A stretch of 54,346 bases of DNA from an uncultured Clostridia bacterium (GTDB lineage Bacteria > Bacillota > Clostridia > TANB77 > CAG-508). Numbering within the stretch: the stretch's first letter is position 1; the number at the start of each line of letters is the position of its first letter. The notes beneath the pieces were generated by a model. That model saw nothing but the letters and a program-made list of their open reading frames with translations, was not told the origin of the DNA and made no database searches. The stretch is taken from contig CALXJQ010000001.1 of the NCBI GenBank assembly GCA_944388665.1, forward strand, positions 1 through 54,346. Reading direction: 5' to 3'. Of this stretch, positions 3,758-48,209 are shown in pieces. A program made the position numbers and the translations under genes.

Positions 3758-4447
3758 ATGAAAAATAGGGAAAAAAGTAAAAATAAAAAAAAGAATGATG
3801 AGAGTTATGAATTGGTAAAAATCGAAAAATTTTTGGATTGTAATAAAAAAGTAGAAAAAGAAGATGCAACATTCAAAAAATTAATGTTTATTTATTCAAT
3901 TGCAATAAGAGAATTAGACACAAAAATAGGAATACTAAAAGATGAATTTCAACTATTTCACAACTATGATTTAATAGATCATGTAAATAGTAGATTAAAA
4001 ACTCCAGACAGTATAATGAACAAAATGAAGAAAAAAGACTTACAACTTACATATAAATCAATGATAGAAAATATTAATGATATTGCAGGAATACGAGTAA
4101 TATGCCCATTAAAAAAGGATGTATATACCATAAAAGACTCCGTAGAAAAATTTCCAGGAATCCAAGTATTAAAAGAAAAAGATTACTTAGCTAAACCCAA
4201 AAAAAGTGGTTATTCTAGTTATCACTTAATAGTAGAAACACCAGTTCCACTGTCACAAAATGTAGCTTACGTGAAGGTAGAAATACAAATAAGAACAATG
4301 GCAATGGACTTCTGGGCTAGTTTAGAGCACAAAATGAAATATAAGCCAGATGGAGTAATTGACAAAAAAAATTCTAAAGAATGGGTAAATTGTGCAAAAG
4401 TTGTAAATAAATTAGATAATAAAATGATGTTATTAAATGAACTTTAG
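3758..4447 (+). CDS. Small alarmone synthetase (RelP/RelQ-type GTP pyrophosphokinase)
   Basis: RelA_SpoT synthetase motifs IAGIRVICPL, GYSSYHLIV and VEIQIRTMAMDFWASLEHKMKYK. It is single-domain size. Confidence 0.9.
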   Translation: MKNREKSKNKKKNDESYELVKIEKFLDCNKKVEKEDATFKKLMFIYSIAIRELDTKIGILKDEFQLFHNYDLIDHVNSRLKTPDSIMNKMKKKDLQLTYKSMIENINDIAGIRVICPLKKDVYTIKDSVEKFPGIQVLKEKDYLAKPKKSGYSSYHLIVETPVPLSQNVAYVKVEIQIRTMAMDFWASLEHKMKYKPDGVIDKKNSKEWVNCAKVVNKLDNKMMLLNEL

Positions 4448-23335: not shown

Positions 23336-24904
23336 ATGGTTATAGATACACTTAAGGAAAAACTATGCATAAATAAATTAATCGCTACTAAACGAGAGTT
23401 GCTACAAGTAGAGGGAGATATGATAGTACCTGATTCTAAACCAGATATTTTAAACACAATTTGTACAAGTGGAACAGTATGTTTATACAAAAAGGAAATA
23501 TTAGATGATAAAGTTCGATTAGATGGAACTATAAACACATACATAATGTATTTGGCTGATGACGAAAAAGATAAAGTAAGAGGACTCAATACATCAATTG
23601 ATTTCTCAGAAACAATAAATGTGTCTGGCTGTAAAGAAGGAATGTCAGAAATGACAGAAACAAAACTAAAGTCTATAGAATGTAAAATAGTAAATGGTAG
23701 AAAAATAGCTTTAAAGGCTAATCTTGAGGTAGAAATAAAAATATACTCAAATGATGAAGTGGAAATAATAGAAGATATCCCAAATATTGATGATATCAAA
23801 ATTCTAAAAGAAGACTTTAATGTAAATTCATTAGTAGGAATGGGCGAAACTAGAGTGTATGCAAAAGATACGCTTTCAATAAAACCTGAAGATAATGCTG
23901 CAGAGATTTTGAAAAGTAATGTTTGCATAAGTGATAAAGACATAAAAGTTAGCTATAATAAAATATTGGCGAAGGCAGAAGCTCAAATTAAAATAATGTA
24001 TTTAACAGAAGACAGCAGAATTGGAATGATAAATACAAAAATTCCAATTGTGGGATTTATAGATATGCCAAATGTAACAGATGAAAATATAACTGATGTA
24101 AATTATGAAATTCAAAACATCGTAATGAAGTTGAATTCGGCAGAAGAACATTCTGTTTATGTAGAAATAGAAGTTGGAATAAAAGCATCTGTTTATGAAG
24201 AAAAACAAATAAATTTAATTCAAGATTTATATAGCCCAAGCAGAATTTTGGAATTCGACAAAAGAAAAATAACAACAATGACTAATAAAAGAAATAGTAA
24301 GGAAATGAAGCAAATAAGAGAAAAAATTATACTAGAACAGAACGAAAATGATAGATTACTAGATGTAGATGCAATTCCAATAATTGAAAAGGAAAGTAAA
24401 CAAAATGGTAGAATTTCTTATGAAGGGAATGTAGAGATGACATTTATAATGGAAAATGCGAGTGCAGGTGTGAATACCAGAATAGAAAAGATACCATTTG
24501 AATATACTCTTGAAAATATAAATAATGCAGAAAGAACAAATGCAGATTTAGATATAGAAATAGCGAACCAGGACTTCATAATACAAGATGGCGGGGTGGT
24601 AACAAGCAATATAGATTTACTAATGAATGCAAGTCTTTATGAAAGTGCTAACTTGAATATAATTAATGAAATACAAGACACAGGGGAAAGGGAAAACGAA
24701 GATTATAGCATAATAATGTATATTGTAAAAAAAGGGGATACATTGTGGAAAATAGCAAAAAAATTTGGTACTACAGTTGAAGATATAGTAAGATTAAATG
24801 GCATAGAGGATGCAAACAAAATTATGCCTGCCCAAAAATTGTTTATACCCAAATATGTAAAAATAGGAACGAGCAATAGAGCTCCAGTCATGGCAAATGG
24901 ATAA
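23336..24904 (+). CDS. DUF3794-repeat protein with a C-terminal LysM domain (SipL-like spore morphogenetic protein)
   Basis: C-terminal LysM YIVKKGDTLWKIAKKFGTTVEDIVRLNGI. The size and architecture match clostridial SipL-type proteins, and the neighbourhood is sporulation genes. Confidence 0.7.
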   Translation: MVIDTLKEKLCINKLIATKRELLQVEGDMIVPDSKPDILNTICTSGTVCLYKKEILDDKVRLDGTINTYIMYLADDEKDKVRGLNTSIDFSETINVSGCKEGMSEMTETKLKSIECKIVNGRKIALKANLEVEIKIYSNDEVEIIEDIPNIDDIKILKEDFNVNSLVGMGETRVYAKDTLSIKPEDNAAEILKSNVCISDKDIKVSYNKILAKAEAQIKIMYLTEDSRIGMINTKIPIVGFIDMPNVTDENITDVNYEIQNIVMKLNSAEEHSVYVEIEVGIKASVYEEKQINLIQDLYSPSRILEFDKRKITTMTNKRNSKEMKQIREKIILEQNENDRLLDVDAIPIIEKESKQNGRISYEGNVEMTFIMENASAGVNTRIEKIPFEYTLENINNAERTNADLDIEIANQDFIIQDGGVVTSNIDLLMNASLYESANLNIINEIQDTGERENEDYSIIMYIVKKGDTLWKIAKKFGTTVEDIVRLNGIEDANKIMPAQKLFIPKYVKIGTSNRAPVMANG

Positions 24905-25619
24905 GATATATTCAAGGCCACGAATAAAATTGCCCAATTTTTCTAAAATTAGATTAAAAAATAATCCAAATTCCAAAAACGTAAAAAAATCGTTAAAACT
25001 TATAGTCATTTTATTAATAGCTATTGCTACTGCAAAATATATAATAGATACTGTTACACCTATCTTTGAAACACTTTGTATAAATAAATCAAAGTCAATG
25101 GCGACAATCATTTCGAATACAGAAACGATGAATGTAATGAAGTCACATTCTTATGATGAACTATTTACAATAGAAAAAGATGCTGATGGAAACGTAACAA
25201 TGATAAAATCAAATATGGTTTCAATAAATGAAATAACCTCGGAAATAGCTACAAATATTCAAAAAGAACTTGATAACAAGGGAAGAGAAAATATACAGAT
25301 AGCGCTTGGAAGCTTTACTGGAATAAAAATTTTATCAGGAAGGGGTCCAGGTGTTCCAATAAGAATATCATCAGTAGGAAATATAGATACAGAGCTTAAA
25401 AGTGAATTTGAAGCTCAAGGAATAAATCAAACACTCCATAGAGTATATTTACAACTAACATGTAGGGTAAATATCTTAACACCTTTTGAAGACATAGAAA
25501 ATGAAATTACAAATCAGGTGTTGTTGGCAGAAAATATAATAGTTGGAAAAATACCAGAAACATACTATAATTTAGAAGGCTTAACTCCTGAAAACGATGC
25601 AATGGAAGTTATAAACTAA
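24897..25619 (+). CDS. yunB: Sporulation protein YunB
   Basis: N-terminal TM helix, then GRGPGVPIRISSVGNIDTELKSEFEAQGINQTLHRVYL, which is typical of YunB. The start overlaps the upstream stop. Confidence 0.8.
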   Translation: MDKIYSRPRIKLPNFSKIRLKNNPNSKNVKKSLKLIVILLIAIATAKYIIDTVTPIFETLCINKSKSMATIISNTETMNVMKSHSYDELFTIEKDADGNVTMIKSNMVSINEITSEIATNIQKELDNKGRENIQIALGSFTGIKILSGRGPGVPIRISSVGNIDTELKSEFEAQGINQTLHRVYLQLTCRVNILTPFEDIENEITNQVLLAENIIVGKIPETYYNLEGLTPENDAMEVIN

Positions 25620-25693
25620 AAACATCAAATACTACTTGAAAAAATCGTAAAAACCTTGTAAAATAATGTAGGGAAGAAAGGAATGCGATAAAT

Positions 25694-26644
25694 ATGGAAA
25701 TTAGTAATAACAATAATGATTCTATGGTAAAAATTAAGGTGTTTGGTGTAGGCGGAGGCGGCACAAATGCGGTTTCACGAATGATAATAGATAAAGTAGA
25801 AAATATACAGCCATATCTAATAAATACAGAAATGAGCATTTTAAAAAGAGTTCCAACTAAAAGAGCTTTACAGATAGGAAAAGAAACAACAAAAGGTTTA
25901 GGAGCAGGTGCTGATGAAAACATAGGAGAAAAGGCAGCTTTAGAAAACAAAGAAGATATTAAGGCACTATTGCAAGACACTGACATGCTATTTGTTACTG
26001 CAGGAATGGGAGGCGGAACAGGCACAGGAGCAGCACCTGTTGTAGCTAGGATTGCCAAAGAAATGGGTATTTTAACTGTAGGAATTGTTACAAAGCCATT
26101 CGGCTTTGAAGGCAAAAAAAGAACTGCAAGAGCAGAACTGGGGATAAAGAACCTAAAAGAAAATGTAAATGCCCTAATAGTAATTTTAAATGATAAACTA
26201 CTAAAAGTTGTTGGAGATAGAGTAACAGTAAATCAAGCATTTGCGTTGGTTGATGATGTTCTAAAGCAAGGAGTAAAAAGCATTACAGATTTAGTAACTA
26301 CAGTTGGAGAGATAAATATAGACTTTGCAGATATAAAAACTATTTTTAATTATAAAGGAAGAGCCTATATGGGAATAGGTGAGGCAAATGCAGGAGAGAC
26401 TATTGAAGATGCTGTAAGGCAAGCGATAGAAAACCCATTAACAGAAACACAAATAGATAAAGCCAAAGGCGTTATATTTAATGTTACTGGCGGAGAAAAC
26501 TTGAGTTTGGCAGAAATTAGTAGTGCAGTTCAACTTATAAATGACAAAATAGATGGAGACGCAAACATCATGTTTGGAACTGTAATAGACAAAAATTTAG
26601 GAAGTAAAGTAAGAGTAACAGTAATTGCAACAGGAATTGAATAA
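25694..26644 (+). CDS. ftsZ: FtsZ homologue (tubulin/FtsZ GTPase) lacking the C-terminal linker and tail peptide
   Basis: GVGGGGTNAV, GLGAGA, the tubulin signature GGGTGTGAAPV and T7-loop NIDFAD. The protein stops two residues after VIATG (316 aa). Confidence 0.85.
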   Translation: MEISNNNNDSMVKIKVFGVGGGGTNAVSRMIIDKVENIQPYLINTEMSILKRVPTKRALQIGKETTKGLGAGADENIGEKAALENKEDIKALLQDTDMLFVTAGMGGGTGTGAAPVVARIAKEMGILTVGIVTKPFGFEGKKRTARAELGIKNLKENVNALIVILNDKLLKVVGDRVTVNQAFALVDDVLKQGVKSITDLVTTVGEINIDFADIKTIFNYKGRAYMGIGEANAGETIEDAVRQAIENPLTETQIDKAKGVIFNVTGGENLSLAEISSAVQLINDKIDGDANIMFGTVIDKNLGSKVRVTVIATGIE

Positions 26645-26650
26645 AAAATA

Positions 26651-26890
26651 AGGAAGTTCTAAAATTTTACAATTTGTAGTTTACTGATTTCAATCTCTTG
26701 TAAAATATTATGATATATAATTTCTTGTACCTTGTTGTCGCAACCTCAAAAACTAAGGCGATAAGGAGAGGTTGCTCCAATCGCACTCGCTTTCGCTCGT
26801 TTGGTCGCTACGCGGTACATCAAAATTATATATCATAATATTTTACTATTTATTTATATAAACTACAAACCGTAAAATTTTAGGACTTCT
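26651..26890 (+). repeat. 240-bp structured element, copy 1: long copy-specific inverted arms around a conserved asymmetric core
   Basis: Outer arms 26651-26683 / 26858-26890 and inner arms gtaaaatattatgatatataattt / aaattatatatcataatattttac pair with each other. The core TTGTACCTTGTTGTCGCAACCT (26725-26746) ... AGGTTGCTCCAATCGCACTCGCTTTCGCTCGTTT (26769-26802) recurs at 48099-48177. Confidence 0.75.
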
Positions 26891-26892
26891 TC

Positions 26893-26961
26893 TTGAAAAA
26901 GTACCAATAAAATCATTGAAAAAATACCAATAAAAGTCTTGAAAAAGTACCAATAAAATGA
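26893..26961 (+). repeat. Three tandem 23-bp repeats TTGAAAAAGTACCAATAAAAK
   Basis: Units start at 26893, 26916 and 26939. The last unit provides the -35 box of the promoter below. Confidence 0.8.
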
Positions 26962-26967
26962 TATAAT
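26939..26967 (+). promoter_or_regulatory. Sigma-A type promoter (TTGAAA-17 bp-TGaTATAAT, extended -10) for the AAA ATPase gene
   Basis: TTGAAA at 26939-26944 and TATAAT at 26962-26967, preceded by TG. Confidence 0.6.
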
Positions 26968-26996
26968 TTTAATAAATGAAAATTAGGAGGGATAAT

Positions 26997-28266
26997 ATGC
27001 CACTTACAAAGGATGATTATAAACCTAGAATAATAGACGAAAAAATCACTAAAAATTTAAGAATATTTGGTGCAATAAGCATAGAAGGACCAAAATGGTG
27101 TGGCAAAACATGGACAGCGCTAAACCATGCTAATTCAGTAATTTATCTTAATAATGTTAGCAATAACTTTAATGAAAAAAAATTAGCACAAATGAATGTC
27201 GACTTAATATTAAACAAAGAATATCCAGAACTTATTGACGAATGGCAAGAAGTACCAGCTATTTGGGACGGAATTCGTTTTAAATGTGATGAAGATAACA
27301 TAAGAGGAAAATACATACTAACAGGCTCAGCAACGCCAGTAACAAAAGATATACATCATTCGGGTGCAGGTAGAATTTGTAGAATGAAAATGTATACGAT
27401 GTCTTTATATGAATCTGGAGATTCTAGCCGGAGAAGTATCTTTACAAGATTTATTCAAAAATAATGTAGAAGACAAATTAACAGGAAAAGTTGACTTAAA
27501 AAAGTTAATACAATTAATTATAAGAGGCGGTTGGCCACAAAGCGTTGGCATGAGCGAAGAAGATAGTTTAGAATTAACACAAAGCTATATAAATGATGTC
27601 TTAAACTTTGATATTTCTAACATAGATGGAGTTACAAGGGATATTAATAAAATGCGAATGATATTGCGTTCATTAGCTAGAAATGAAACCACTATTGTAA
27701 ATAATAATACCATAATACATGACGTAAATGAAAGCCAGGATTTAGCTAGCAAAAATACAGTATTAGAATATATAGATGTATTAGAAAAATTATATTTAAT
27801 AGAAAATCAAATAGCTTTTAGTGTGAACTTGCGTTCAAGCAGCAGAGTTGGTAAGTCTGCAAAGAGACATTTTGTAGATCCATCATTAGTATGTGGCGTT
27901 TTAGGCTTAACATCTGAAAGTCTTTTAAATGATATAAACTTTTTAGGATTTCTATTTGAGGCACTTTGCGAGAGAGACTTACGTATATATATTGAAAGCT
28001 ATAATGGTCATTTATATCACTTTAGAGATAATACAACTGGATTAGAAATAGACTCAATAGTAGAAATGCCTAATGGAGATTATGGAGCGATAGAAATAAA
28101 ACTAGGTACAGATAAAATAGAAGAAGCGGCAACAAATCTGTTAAAATTTAACGAAATAGTAGAAAAGAAACCAAAATTTTTATGCATAATCAGTGGTTTA
28201 AATGAAGCAGTAATTAGAAGGCCAGATGGAATATATGTAATTCCAATAACAGCATTAAAAAACTAA
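26997..28266 (+). CDS. AAA+ ATPase of the AAA_14/DUF4143 type (COG1373). The frame is interrupted at the CGG codon 27429-27431 and needs a +1 shift.
   Basis: Walker A GPKWCGKT in the first ORF. The second ORF (frame +1) carries the DUF4143-like remainder. Joining at AGC(C)GGA gives ..LYESGDSSGEVSLQDLF... AGGAGGG RBS before ATG 26997. Confidence 0.75.
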
Positions 28267-47672: not shown

Positions 47673-48035
47673 ATGAATACTATATTACTTATATTTTTAG
47701 CTTTGCCATTGGCCACAGTTATAATATCAATAGCATTACAAAAAATTTTGAAATCTCCAATATTAGTTTCAGCTATTACTTTTGTTGTATTTTTAATAAT
47801 TGCACTAATATTCAACAATTTCGGACTTTTAGTTGCAGCAATTGCGTATGGAATACTTAGCTTTTTAACTGCATACATAGCTTGTATACTATGCAAAATA
47901 TCATCTGAAAGAGCTTCCAACTGTAACAATGGGTGCAATGACAACTGCAACTGTAATGAAATAGAAAATGCTTTACCTAGTGGCAATAATGGAAATTCAG
48001 GATGTATGTGCAGAAACTATAGGAGAAGAAGGTAA
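47673..48035 (+). CDS. Small membrane protein with a Cys/Asn-rich, Arg-terminated tail
   Basis: AAGGAG RBS. Three predicted TM segments are followed by CNNGCNDNCNCNE..GCMCRNYRRRR. Confidence 0.6.
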   Translation: MNTILLIFLALPLATVIISIALQKILKSPILVSAITFVVFLIIALIFNNFGLLVAAIAYGILSFLTAYIACILCKISSERASNCNNGCNDNCNCNEIENALPSGNNGNSGCMCRNYRRRR

Positions 48036-48039
48036 AAAT

Positions 48040-48209
48040 TTTTATAATTTACTGCTATTAATTTTATGTACGACAAAAATCTTATAATAAATAATTTTTT
48101 GTACCTTGTTGTTGCAACCTTACAATTAAAATAATAAAAACGTAAGGTTGCTCCAATTGCACTCGCTTCGCTCGTTTAATCGATTAATATTAGCAGTGAA
48201 TTATAAAAG
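48040..48209 (+). repeat. Structured element, copy 2: same conserved core as 26725-26802 but different flanking inverted arms
   Basis: Core TTGTACCTTGTTGTTGCAACCT (48099-48120) ... AGGTTGCTCCAATTGCACTCGCTTCGCTCGTTT (48145-48177). The arms ttttataatttactgctattaat / attaatattagcagtgaattataaaag pair with each other. Confidence 0.75.

Follow-up and report, generated by a model that had tools for sequence, protein, structure and literature searches.

A dispersed, probably mobile element of uncultured gut Clostridia with a conserved three-helix centre

The window, by which we mean the whole stretch of 54,346 nucleotides analyzed here, contains at 26651-26890 and at 48040-48208 a common asymmetric core of about 80 nt, enclosed in long inverted arms. 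The question that it raises is whether we are dealing with a structured RNA tied to the adjoining genes, as proposed in an earlier note made from the letters of this DNA, or with an element of another kind, and what its core does. The core shared by two sites, from which that note had started, was recovered: both core halves occurred exactly twice in the 54-kb window, always on the plus strand (at 26725-26746 and 26769-26791 in copy 1 and at 48099-48120 and 48145-48167 in copy 2, the core spanning 26725-26802 and 48099-48177), while 100 dinucleotide-preserving shuffles gave none (0 expected).

Copy 1 (26651-26890; all features described here are numbered on the plus strand) is an intact family member, a long hairpin with an asymmetric core. 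It lies between an ftsZ-like gene, encoding a 316-aa FtsZ homologue, and the gene of an AAA_14/DUF4143 ATPase. Its left outer arm (26653-26683) pairs with the right outer arm (26859-26889) over 31 nt with 90% complementarity, and its left inner arm (26687-26723) pairs with the right inner arm (26823-26859) over 37 nt with 84% complementarity. The folding energy amounted to -84.8 kcal/mol (z = -12.0 vs shuffled controls), and the sole ORF across this copy comprises 42 aa. Copy 2 (48040-48208) is a decayed copy, located between the gene of a DUF2651 Cys-rich membrane protein and that of an ArsP_2-type transporter. Its arms (48040-48060 with 48188-48208) pair over 21 nt with 90% complementarity, and its folding energy was -44.5 kcal/mol (z = -5.6 vs shuffled controls). 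Both copies begin, as had been stated, just past the stop codon of an upstream plus-strand gene, at a distance of 6-9 nt (stops at 26642-26644 and 48033-48035), and both point to a downstream gene, a plus-strand gene indeed following each of them. The outer arms had been described as pairing in both copies while differing completely in sequence. The pairing was found as described; on pairwise alignment, however, some similarity is left between the left arms, and the two sets of arms are thus diverged, not unrelated.

The asymmetric centre, about 95 nt long, folds as a three-helix junction made up of a closing stem, P1, and two hairpins, P2 and P3. In copy 1, the innermost part of the closing stem, P1b, consists of GTACC (26727-26731) paired with GGTAC (26814-26818), and 5/5 of its pairs covary across the family. 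The first junction, J1/2 (26732-26739, TTGTTGTC), which in the family consensus is TTG, 2-4 nt and TC, leads to hairpin P2 (26740-26775), formed by GCAACCTC, a 20-nt loop and GAGGTTGC, with a stem that covaries in relatives. J2/3 (26776-26788, TCCAATCGCACTC) is near-invariant family-wide. It is followed by hairpin P3 (26789-26796, GC-TTTC-GC), longer in relatives, and by J3/1 (26797-26813, TCGTTTGGTCGCTACGC), which is near-invariant and may contain a mini-hairpin, GC-(T)TAC-GC. The 5' part of the family consensus reads arm, ACACC, TTG(N2-4)TC and GCAACC-loop-GGTTGC, and the 3' part TCCA(N1-3)TCGCACTC, GC-loop-GC, TCGTTTGGTCGCTTACGC, GGTGT and arm. About 55 nt of unpaired junction sequence are near-invariant across the family. 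The core stretches include TCGCACTC and GTTTGGTCGC.

The helices were found in several versions. P1b occurred as ACACC/GGTGT, ACACT/AGTGT, ATACC/GGTAT, GTACC/GGTAC and ATGCC/GGCAT. P2 seemed invariant in a first scan because the search pattern lay within P2 itself; with an independent anchor, it was found as GCAATC/GATTGC, GCAATT/AATTGC, GCAACT/AGTTGC, GCAAAC/GTTTGC, GTAACC/GGTTAC and CACAAC/GTTGTT. P3 varied both in sequence and in length (GCAGA..TCTGC, GCAAA..TTTGC, GCTTC..GAAGC, GCC..GGC). The P2 loop measured between 13 and about 110 nt in the family members and can hold hairpin inserts of up to about 110 nt, six copies carried a hairpin of about 50 nt inserted in the 3' junction, and three variants (L141, L156, L169) were devoid of P2. 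On re-reading the two window copies, we found the GCAACCT/AGGTTGC stem as previously described, its extension being C-G in copy 1 but TAC/GTA in copy 2, as well as the 1-nt indel in the 3' core (GCTTTCGC vs GCTTCGC), which is sited in the loop of a small hairpin. A shared peptide, already thought unlikely in the earlier note, is excluded because the loop of P3 differs among copies by steps that are not multiples of three and thus out of frame.

A covariance model of the family matched copy 1 at 26717-26828 with 104.7 bits and copy 2 at 48091-48209 with 70 bits, the P1b pairs of the latter being broken; it found no further copy in the 54-kb window. Copy 2 had been taken for a second full copy, which is not what we observed: the 3' core GGTCGCTACGCGGTAC and the inner right arm are absent. 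Its 5' core, P2 (48114-48151; GCAACCTTAC, an 18-nt loop and GTAAGGTTGC), J2/3 and P3 are intact, while the 3' junction and the partners of GTACC and of the inner left arm are gone. The remnant of J3/1 (48172-48187) reads TCGTTTAATCGATTAA in place of TCGTTTGGTCGCTACGC and directly abuts the outer right arm. Copy 2 would therefore be a copy in the course of decay.

Evidence that the pairing is maintained was obtained from double changes. These were found in 13 of 25 tested pairs in a hand-checked alignment of 43 diverse copies, and in 16 of 17 pairs among 107 copies aligned with the model, a procedure that favours structure. In the same model-fitted alignment, 187 compensated cells were counted vs 53 +/- 6 after shuffling, none of 500 shuffles reaching the observed values, and the proportion of paired cells fell from 88% to between 28% and 47% in shifted-register controls. 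Covariation, which the earlier note had left to be checked, thus took the form of compensatory changes in the arms, P2 and P3. Three other potential structures were rejected. A pairing between J1/2 and J3/1, suggested by correlated 1-nt deletions, showed no covariation, the 3' deletion corresponding to the mini-hairpin loop; a CCAA/TTGG pairing between junctions met with 11 uncompensated breaks and no double change; and a hammerhead-like CUGAUG...GAAA in long P2 inserts was, as judged by eye, not conserved (CTAATG, CAGATG, CTTATG). Resemblances to Chi, attC, the dif site, the T-box sequence and the CS-6 motif of plasmid single-strand origins each came down to a few bases of AT-rich or short motifs.

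Further copies were plentiful. A scan of one genome per species for exact matches to a 22-mer from the 3' half of the core gave at least 114 loci in species-representative genomes, with several copies per metagenome-assembled genome; among the matches listed, the hosts were uncultured Clostridia, Clostridium or Eubacteriales from gut metagenomes. A scan of metagenome contigs with an independent 20-mer, taken from another part of the core, gave at least 120 more loci. The element therefore belongs to a repeat family that is scattered, in several hundred copies, through the genomes of uncultured AT-rich gut Clostridia. A phage origin was rejected, with 0 matches in viral contigs. Full copies measure 130-300 bp and are without coding capacity; 107 of 108 were intergenic. 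Their neighbours were housekeeping genes, e.g. mreD, a penicillin-binding protein gene, fabZ, leuS, ispG, polA and uvrA, and no protein family recurred beside the copies except through orthology of the sites. The copies were found in all four gene arrangements, beside unrelated genes, and not at the constant position of a riboswitch or leader. This does not agree with the proposal of a structured RNA tied to its adjoining genes. No recombinase or nuclease, which the earlier note had thought worth looking for near other copies, was present in the examined loci.

No match to Rfam 15 was obtained with the whole window at gathering thresholds, in keeping with the earlier remark that the core fits no known RNA family; in sensitive mode, matches were at chance level or to generic long hairpins only. 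A match to MIR7996 was discarded as that of a generic long hairpin, far below threshold. A literature search by sequence strings found no published record of the core, and with no Rfam entry and no literature match, the family is apparently undescribed.

Several observations indicated that the element moves. Exact flanking direct repeats of at least 7 bp were present in 11.3% of the copies, compared with 0.7% of shuffled (randomly paired) flanks. The target-site duplications, seen in copies outside the window, measured 8-10 bp; those read by eye were GCAATTAA (L035), AAATATAAC (L043), TTGTCACGA (L008) and TTATGGTAAG (L059). No clear target-site duplication was found at either window copy. More direct evidence came from a pair of orthologous sites with 96% identical flanks, of which one is filled (L073) and the other empty (L042). 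The sequence AGTTAAAAT is single in the empty site and doubled around TTCAAGTTTCGAC...GTCGAAACTTGAA in the filled one, as expected for a precise insertion with a 9-bp duplication: the empty site reads ...GTCAATG AGGTTAAAAT TAATG..., and the filled one ...GTCAATG AAGTTAAAAT, the 192-bp element, AGTTAAAAT and TAATG.... Copies are also lost, because other orthologous sites keep only remnants, a half shell or a solo tip standing alone (L050, L019). We rejected the idea, suggested by the comparison of L042 with L050, that the outer arms had arisen by inverted duplication of a flank; a deletion between ATGTCC repeats, leaving the left half, accounts better for this site. Also rejected was a parent element with separate half-cores, as none was found when halves 0.5-3 kb apart were sought; apparent spacings of 730-770 nt between core halves were due to two elements flanking fabZ, or were spurious.

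Relatives of the window organism, with FtsZ proteins 79-84% identical to its own, have kept the sipL-yunB-ftsZ synteny, with a plain hairpin after ftsZ and no element. In one locus (L119), the first bases past the ftsZ stop codon resemble those of the window. Because of this resemblance, copy 1 may adjoin an old terminator, and it may have landed in or beside the former terminator hairpin of the ftsZ-like gene.

The element thus has the features of a MITE, namely a small non-coding size, paired terminal arms, target-site duplication and presence/absence polymorphism. That it might be the end of a known IS or MITE, which the earlier note had named as evidence against its own view, turned out to be true in part: there are target-site duplications, and one type of tip resembles a known IS end. 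Our main reading is that of a non-autonomous transposable element (MITE), in a family that is restricted to one clade of uncultured, AT-rich Clostridia of the gut and that carries a functional core, and we give this whole explanation a slightly better than even chance (roughly 0.55).

Three types of tips recurred among the copies, A (TTCAAGTTTCGAC...), B (CAATGCTGTCAACTTAAGG...) and C (GTTACAGTTCAGAC...), the tips of both window copies matching none of them; the arms pair in every copy. All three types carry the same core, which is better conserved than the tips, the reverse of what is seen in an ordinary MITE. Shells without core were not encountered (0/33 tip pairs), and the core was never found apart from a shell. 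These same 33 tip pairs, none of which lacks the core, led us to reject the core as a separate single-strand transposon nested in palindromes.

Elements of the IS4 family duplicate about one helical turn, and IS1 typically gives 9-bp duplications. In type B copies, the duplications measured 9 bp (L008) or 10 bp (L059 and L026). In the type B tip, 11 contiguous bases (TCAACTTAAGG) recur in the left terminal repeat (CACATCCATCAACTTAAGGA) of ISBce2, an annotated IS4-like element of Bacillus cereus pCER270, and lie equally far from the end in both. The type B tip fits 7 of the 8 conserved positions of the end signature of the IS231 subgroup, CAT-------AA--TAA (PMC2266710), and the type A tip fits 8 of the 9 positions of the signature of the ISPepr1 subgroup (PMC2266710). 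The type B tip is also similar to the left repeat of E. coli IS1, with 13 of 14 positions matching (ATGCTG[C/T]CAACTTA) and an offset within one base, and the family of the transposase can for this reason only be inferred. The match to IS231 is more plausible than that to IS1 because of the host range of IS1. The core is not colinear with the subterminal regions of IS1 or ISBce2. No transposase of any kind was found beside the copies in 1.75 Mb of related DNA (about 240 loci); tblastn searches of the same DNA found no homologue of IS1 InsA/InsB or of the ISBce2 transposase, and neither an HUH/Y1 transposase nor a relaxase was present near the copies. Because the duplications span about one helical turn and the type B tip matches the IS231/ISBce2 repeat, we infer that the element would be moved by a DDE transposase acting in trans, most likely of the IS4 family.

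Copies were compared at orthologous sites, which were set by aligning both flanks (38 copy pairs). Where the flanks, mostly coding, were 70% identical, the conserved core segments were 95% identical and the arms 58%; at 79% flank identity (again mostly coding), the corresponding values were 91% and 60%. The arms were nonetheless still complementary within each copy, as seen directly at the mreD/penicillin-binding-protein site. The arms therefore change at an approximately neutral rate and yet pair, whereas the constraint on the core exceeds that on the adjoining genes. An old copy that stays in place would hardly be maintained by selection for mobility. The conservation of the core suggests that it works where it resides or that other copies convert it, and gene conversion within a genome does not explain the same junction sequence across many species. 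The core is probably a functional folded single strand that is kept by purifying selection.

Orientation was analyzed at 166 independent sites, after collapsing orthologous ones. Between co-directional genes, the plus strand of the core was sense in 74 cases and antisense in 23 (74/97, about 77%; p = 2e-7). At convergent and divergent sites, it followed the predominant coding strand of the locus in 20 of 25 cases (p = 0.004), as determined on contigs of 8-14 kb. The transposase should not sense the orientation because the arms are near-perfect palindromes, and the bias probably arises after insertion. In Firmicutes, the predominant coding strand is a proxy for the direction of replication, and the lagging-strand template is, for co-directional genes, their sense strand; the plus strand of the core corresponds to this template. 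At the convergent and divergent sites, the adjoining genes define no sense direction, and yet the bias is no less strong there, which makes an explanation by transcripts alone less convincing and points towards the direction of replication. GC skew was discarded as a replication proxy, being confounded by the coding strand.

The strand on which the core acts was also considered from its mismatches. In the arms, G.T mismatches outnumbered A.C mismatches (157 vs 103), favouring the plus strand and speaking for RNA, while the numbers were 40 vs 45 in the core helices, which speaks against it; mismatch types thus give no consistent strand signal. The covariation pattern, for its part, is equally expected for a DNA hairpin. 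The argument that kept pairing is a hallmark of selection on structure is borne out as far as compensatory pairing is concerned, but a palindrome in DNA is by itself no proof for RNA.

How, then, could the constancy of the core be explained otherwise? If the element were purely selfish, a MITE with a functionless core, the conservation would come from the youth of the copies or from gene conversion among them, and replication template-switching, by correcting imperfect palindromes, would keep the arms complementary; from E. coli genetics, template switching perfects quasipalindromes. In favour of this are the turnover evident from the target-site duplications, the filled/empty pair and the remnants, the near-identical copies found within one genome (e.g. 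type A in the CANONT metagenome-assembled genome), the decayed or internally deleted copies such as window copy 2 and the P2-less L141, L156 and L169, and the lack of a wobble asymmetry among the core-helix mismatches (40 vs 45). We nevertheless consider a functionless core rather improbable. The junctions keep the same sequence in many species-level genomes, irrespective of the core half that anchored the search, and homogenization within genomes should permit species-specific cores, which is difficult to reconcile with a core at 95% identity when flanks are at 70% and arms at 58%. Nor would a neutral element whose arms are near-perfect palindromes be expected to show a strong orientation bias. 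Alternatively, the core could fold as single-stranded DNA, its plus strand becoming accessible on the lagging-strand template during every round of replication. It could then be a site of priming or restart, like the single-strand origins of plasmids, which it may resemble, or serve a fork-coupled step of the element's own mobilization. The element is demonstrably mobile DNA, its orientation follows the predominant coding strand of the locus at 20 of the 25 sites with convergent or divergent neighbours and the prevailing direction at 74 of 97 co-directional ones, and the core helices lack an asymmetry of the G.U type. However, duplications of 8-10 bp denote double-strand DDE transposition, for which a folded single strand is not needed; shells devoid of the core were not seen (0/33 tip pairs), no HUH/Y1 transposase or relaxase lies nearby, and the replication proxy was drawn from contigs of only 8-14 kb. 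A role as single-stranded DNA is, on balance, less likely than one as RNA.

The reading closest to the earlier note, a cis-regulatory RNA or terminator specific to the ftsZ-like or the downstream gene, is very improbable. It would be in line with the position of both window copies, 6-9 nt past an upstream stop and ahead of a plus-strand gene, and with their very stable fold; the same element is, however, found beside dozens of unrelated housekeeping genes in four arrangements, it is missing from the ftsZ-like gene of close relatives, it has no U-tract terminator, and it matches no Rfam family.

Of the roles considered for the core, RNA is the most likely, single-stranded DNA on the lagging-strand template coming next. 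No intrinsic terminator or U-tract was found at either window copy, the arms being followed by A-runs on both strands, and transcriptional read-through is possible because the element contains no intrinsic terminator. No promoter of its own was found in the element, which counts against RNA. The architecture, a junction with invariant unpaired strands and hairpin inserts of variable length at two permissive points, is of a kind that favours RNA, as is the presence of copies inside operons, e.g. on either side of fabZ in L172. It is conceivable, at somewhat short of even odds, that the core would act as RNA within read-through operon transcripts, offering a protein or an RNase a place for docking or processing. 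Only tentatively do we propose that it represents a structured nucleic acid of a new functional class, the most attractive version being a non-coding RNA module spread by transposon shells and then retained. In that proposal, shells with at least three tip types would have carried the core to at least 50 intergenic positions in each genome, and it would be retained by purifying selection at the level of the host, e.g. as the place where an RNA-binding protein or an RNase peculiar to the lineage docks or cleaves.

Bacteria commonly harbour MITEs and palindromic repeats between their genes, and the category is therefore not new. What is unusual is that the common pattern is reversed, the tips being variable and an asymmetric, largely unpaired centre near-constant across many species; furthermore, this centre is better conserved than the adjoining housekeeping coding DNA, and its orientation is biased despite the palindromic arms. 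Should the centre have a function, it would clearly exemplify a structured module that was spread by transposition and then retained, and should the RNA-module reading be true, it would mean genome-wide post-transcriptional control of housekeeping operons. We know of almost no experimental genetics in this clade of uncultured AT-rich gut Clostridia. In their genomes, the element will be a source of error for assembly and for the prediction of terminators and non-coding RNAs. The covariance model built here detects the family cleanly, and its practical value is modest but real.

Comparison with known systems brings out both the likeness and what sets this family apart. The dispersed intergenic hairpins of REP/REPIN (RAYT) and IS200/IS605-type elements similarly show a replication-linked orientation bias and are recognized as folded single strands; they differ in giving no target-site duplication and in depending on a Y1/HUH transposase, whereas here there are duplications of 8-10 bp, no such gene nearby, and a core that is never found outside its shell. 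With E. coli IS1, the likeness is confined to the terminal repeat (13/14 type B positions alike); the remaining element is not colinear, and no IS1-type transposase was found in the 1.75 Mb of related DNA. The closest parallel for the carriage of a cargo is provided by the IS231-derived elements of the Bacillus cereus group (IS4 family), i.e. MIC231 cassettes and IS231-type MITEs. As here, the host is a Firmicute, the duplications approximate a helical turn, and the internal cargo is unrelated to transposition; the non-autonomous unit has IS231-like terminal repeats, as do type B copies only. In contrast, their cargo is a gene while ours is a non-coding three-helix junction of 95 nt, their duplications measure 10-12 bp as opposed to 8-10 bp, and the present family has long, near-perfect palindromic arms, at least three tip types around one cargo, no cognate transposase in the examined loci, and window copies without such tips. 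The Correia (Neisseria), ERIC (enterobacterial), BOX/RUP (pneumococcal) and bcr1 (Bacillus cereus) elements are, like ours, intergenic and ORF-less repeats of 100-250 bp, with dozens to hundreds of copies, long hairpins and insertion polymorphism. They are co-transcribed with their neighbours and have known or proposed effects as mRNA hairpins, through processing by RNase III or RNase E and on transcript stability. Our family has no sequence similarity to them and no Rfam match, and the Correia duplication is TA instead of 8-10 bp. Above all, and unlike in these repeats, it is the asymmetric, largely unpaired centre that is most conserved here, and not the termini.

In the clade, the short FtsZ homologue (311-325 aa) was always found after the sporulation genes sipL and yunB (window 23336-26644, and the ftsZ loci of the relatives, L115-L120). 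The gene downstream of ftsZ was different in each of these relatives, and synteny is therefore broken directly after ftsZ. In the window, a direct repeat of about 22 bp occurred three times (26890-26960; CTTGAAAAAGTACCAATAAAAT and a variant) directly 3' of copy 1, the intact hairpin element that follows the ftsZ-like gene; these repeats look like operator or iteron-type sites. The last of them overlapped the region's best sigma-70-like promoter (26939-26967; TTGAAA-17-TATAAT, with a TG upstream), which is placed upstream of the AAA_14/DUF4143 ATPase gene (26976-28266). This gene was divided between two ORFs that overlap (26976-27464 and 27409-28266), which indicates a frameshift or a pseudogene. 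Elsewhere in the window, a gene on the minus strand (49194-51533) encoded a TraG/VirD4-type coupling protein of 779 aa (Pfam TraG-D_C and T4SS-DNA_transf). It was surrounded by the housekeeping genes cdaA, truA and glmS, and may be what is left of a conjugative element, or its edge.

In the element family, variants lacking hairpin P2 (L141, L156 and L169) read GTGTCGCA|CTCGC; as two TCGCA direct repeats bracket P2 and the junction between P2 and P3 (J2/3), these variants are consistent with a deletion between the two repeats. Six other copies (L016, L025, L028, L041, L077 and L079) carried an extra conserved hairpin of about 50 nt, TGCTGTCCACTGTTAAAGCTTTGCTTGTTACAGTGGCAGTATGC, inserted into the junction after P3 between GCTCGTTT and GGTCGC. 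At L172 (minus strand, 1470-2400), fabZ had one copy on each side, both in its own orientation.

Many copies with the type B tip, which resembles the left terminal repeat of ISBce2, were enclosed in an outer shell made of another short palindromic repeat, GGGGACGTAGATAATGTCCC(TA), found in the element flanks at L002, L004, L005, L042, L044, L065, L076 and L080. At the site of L050 orthologous to L042 (about 1700-1790), only the left half remained. The ISBce2 copy used for comparison, on pCER270 (L243), was flanked by inverted rather than direct sequences (GGCAGTACCC / GGGTACTGCC, at 2190-2230 and 3830-3870), and was directly followed by a second left end in tandem.
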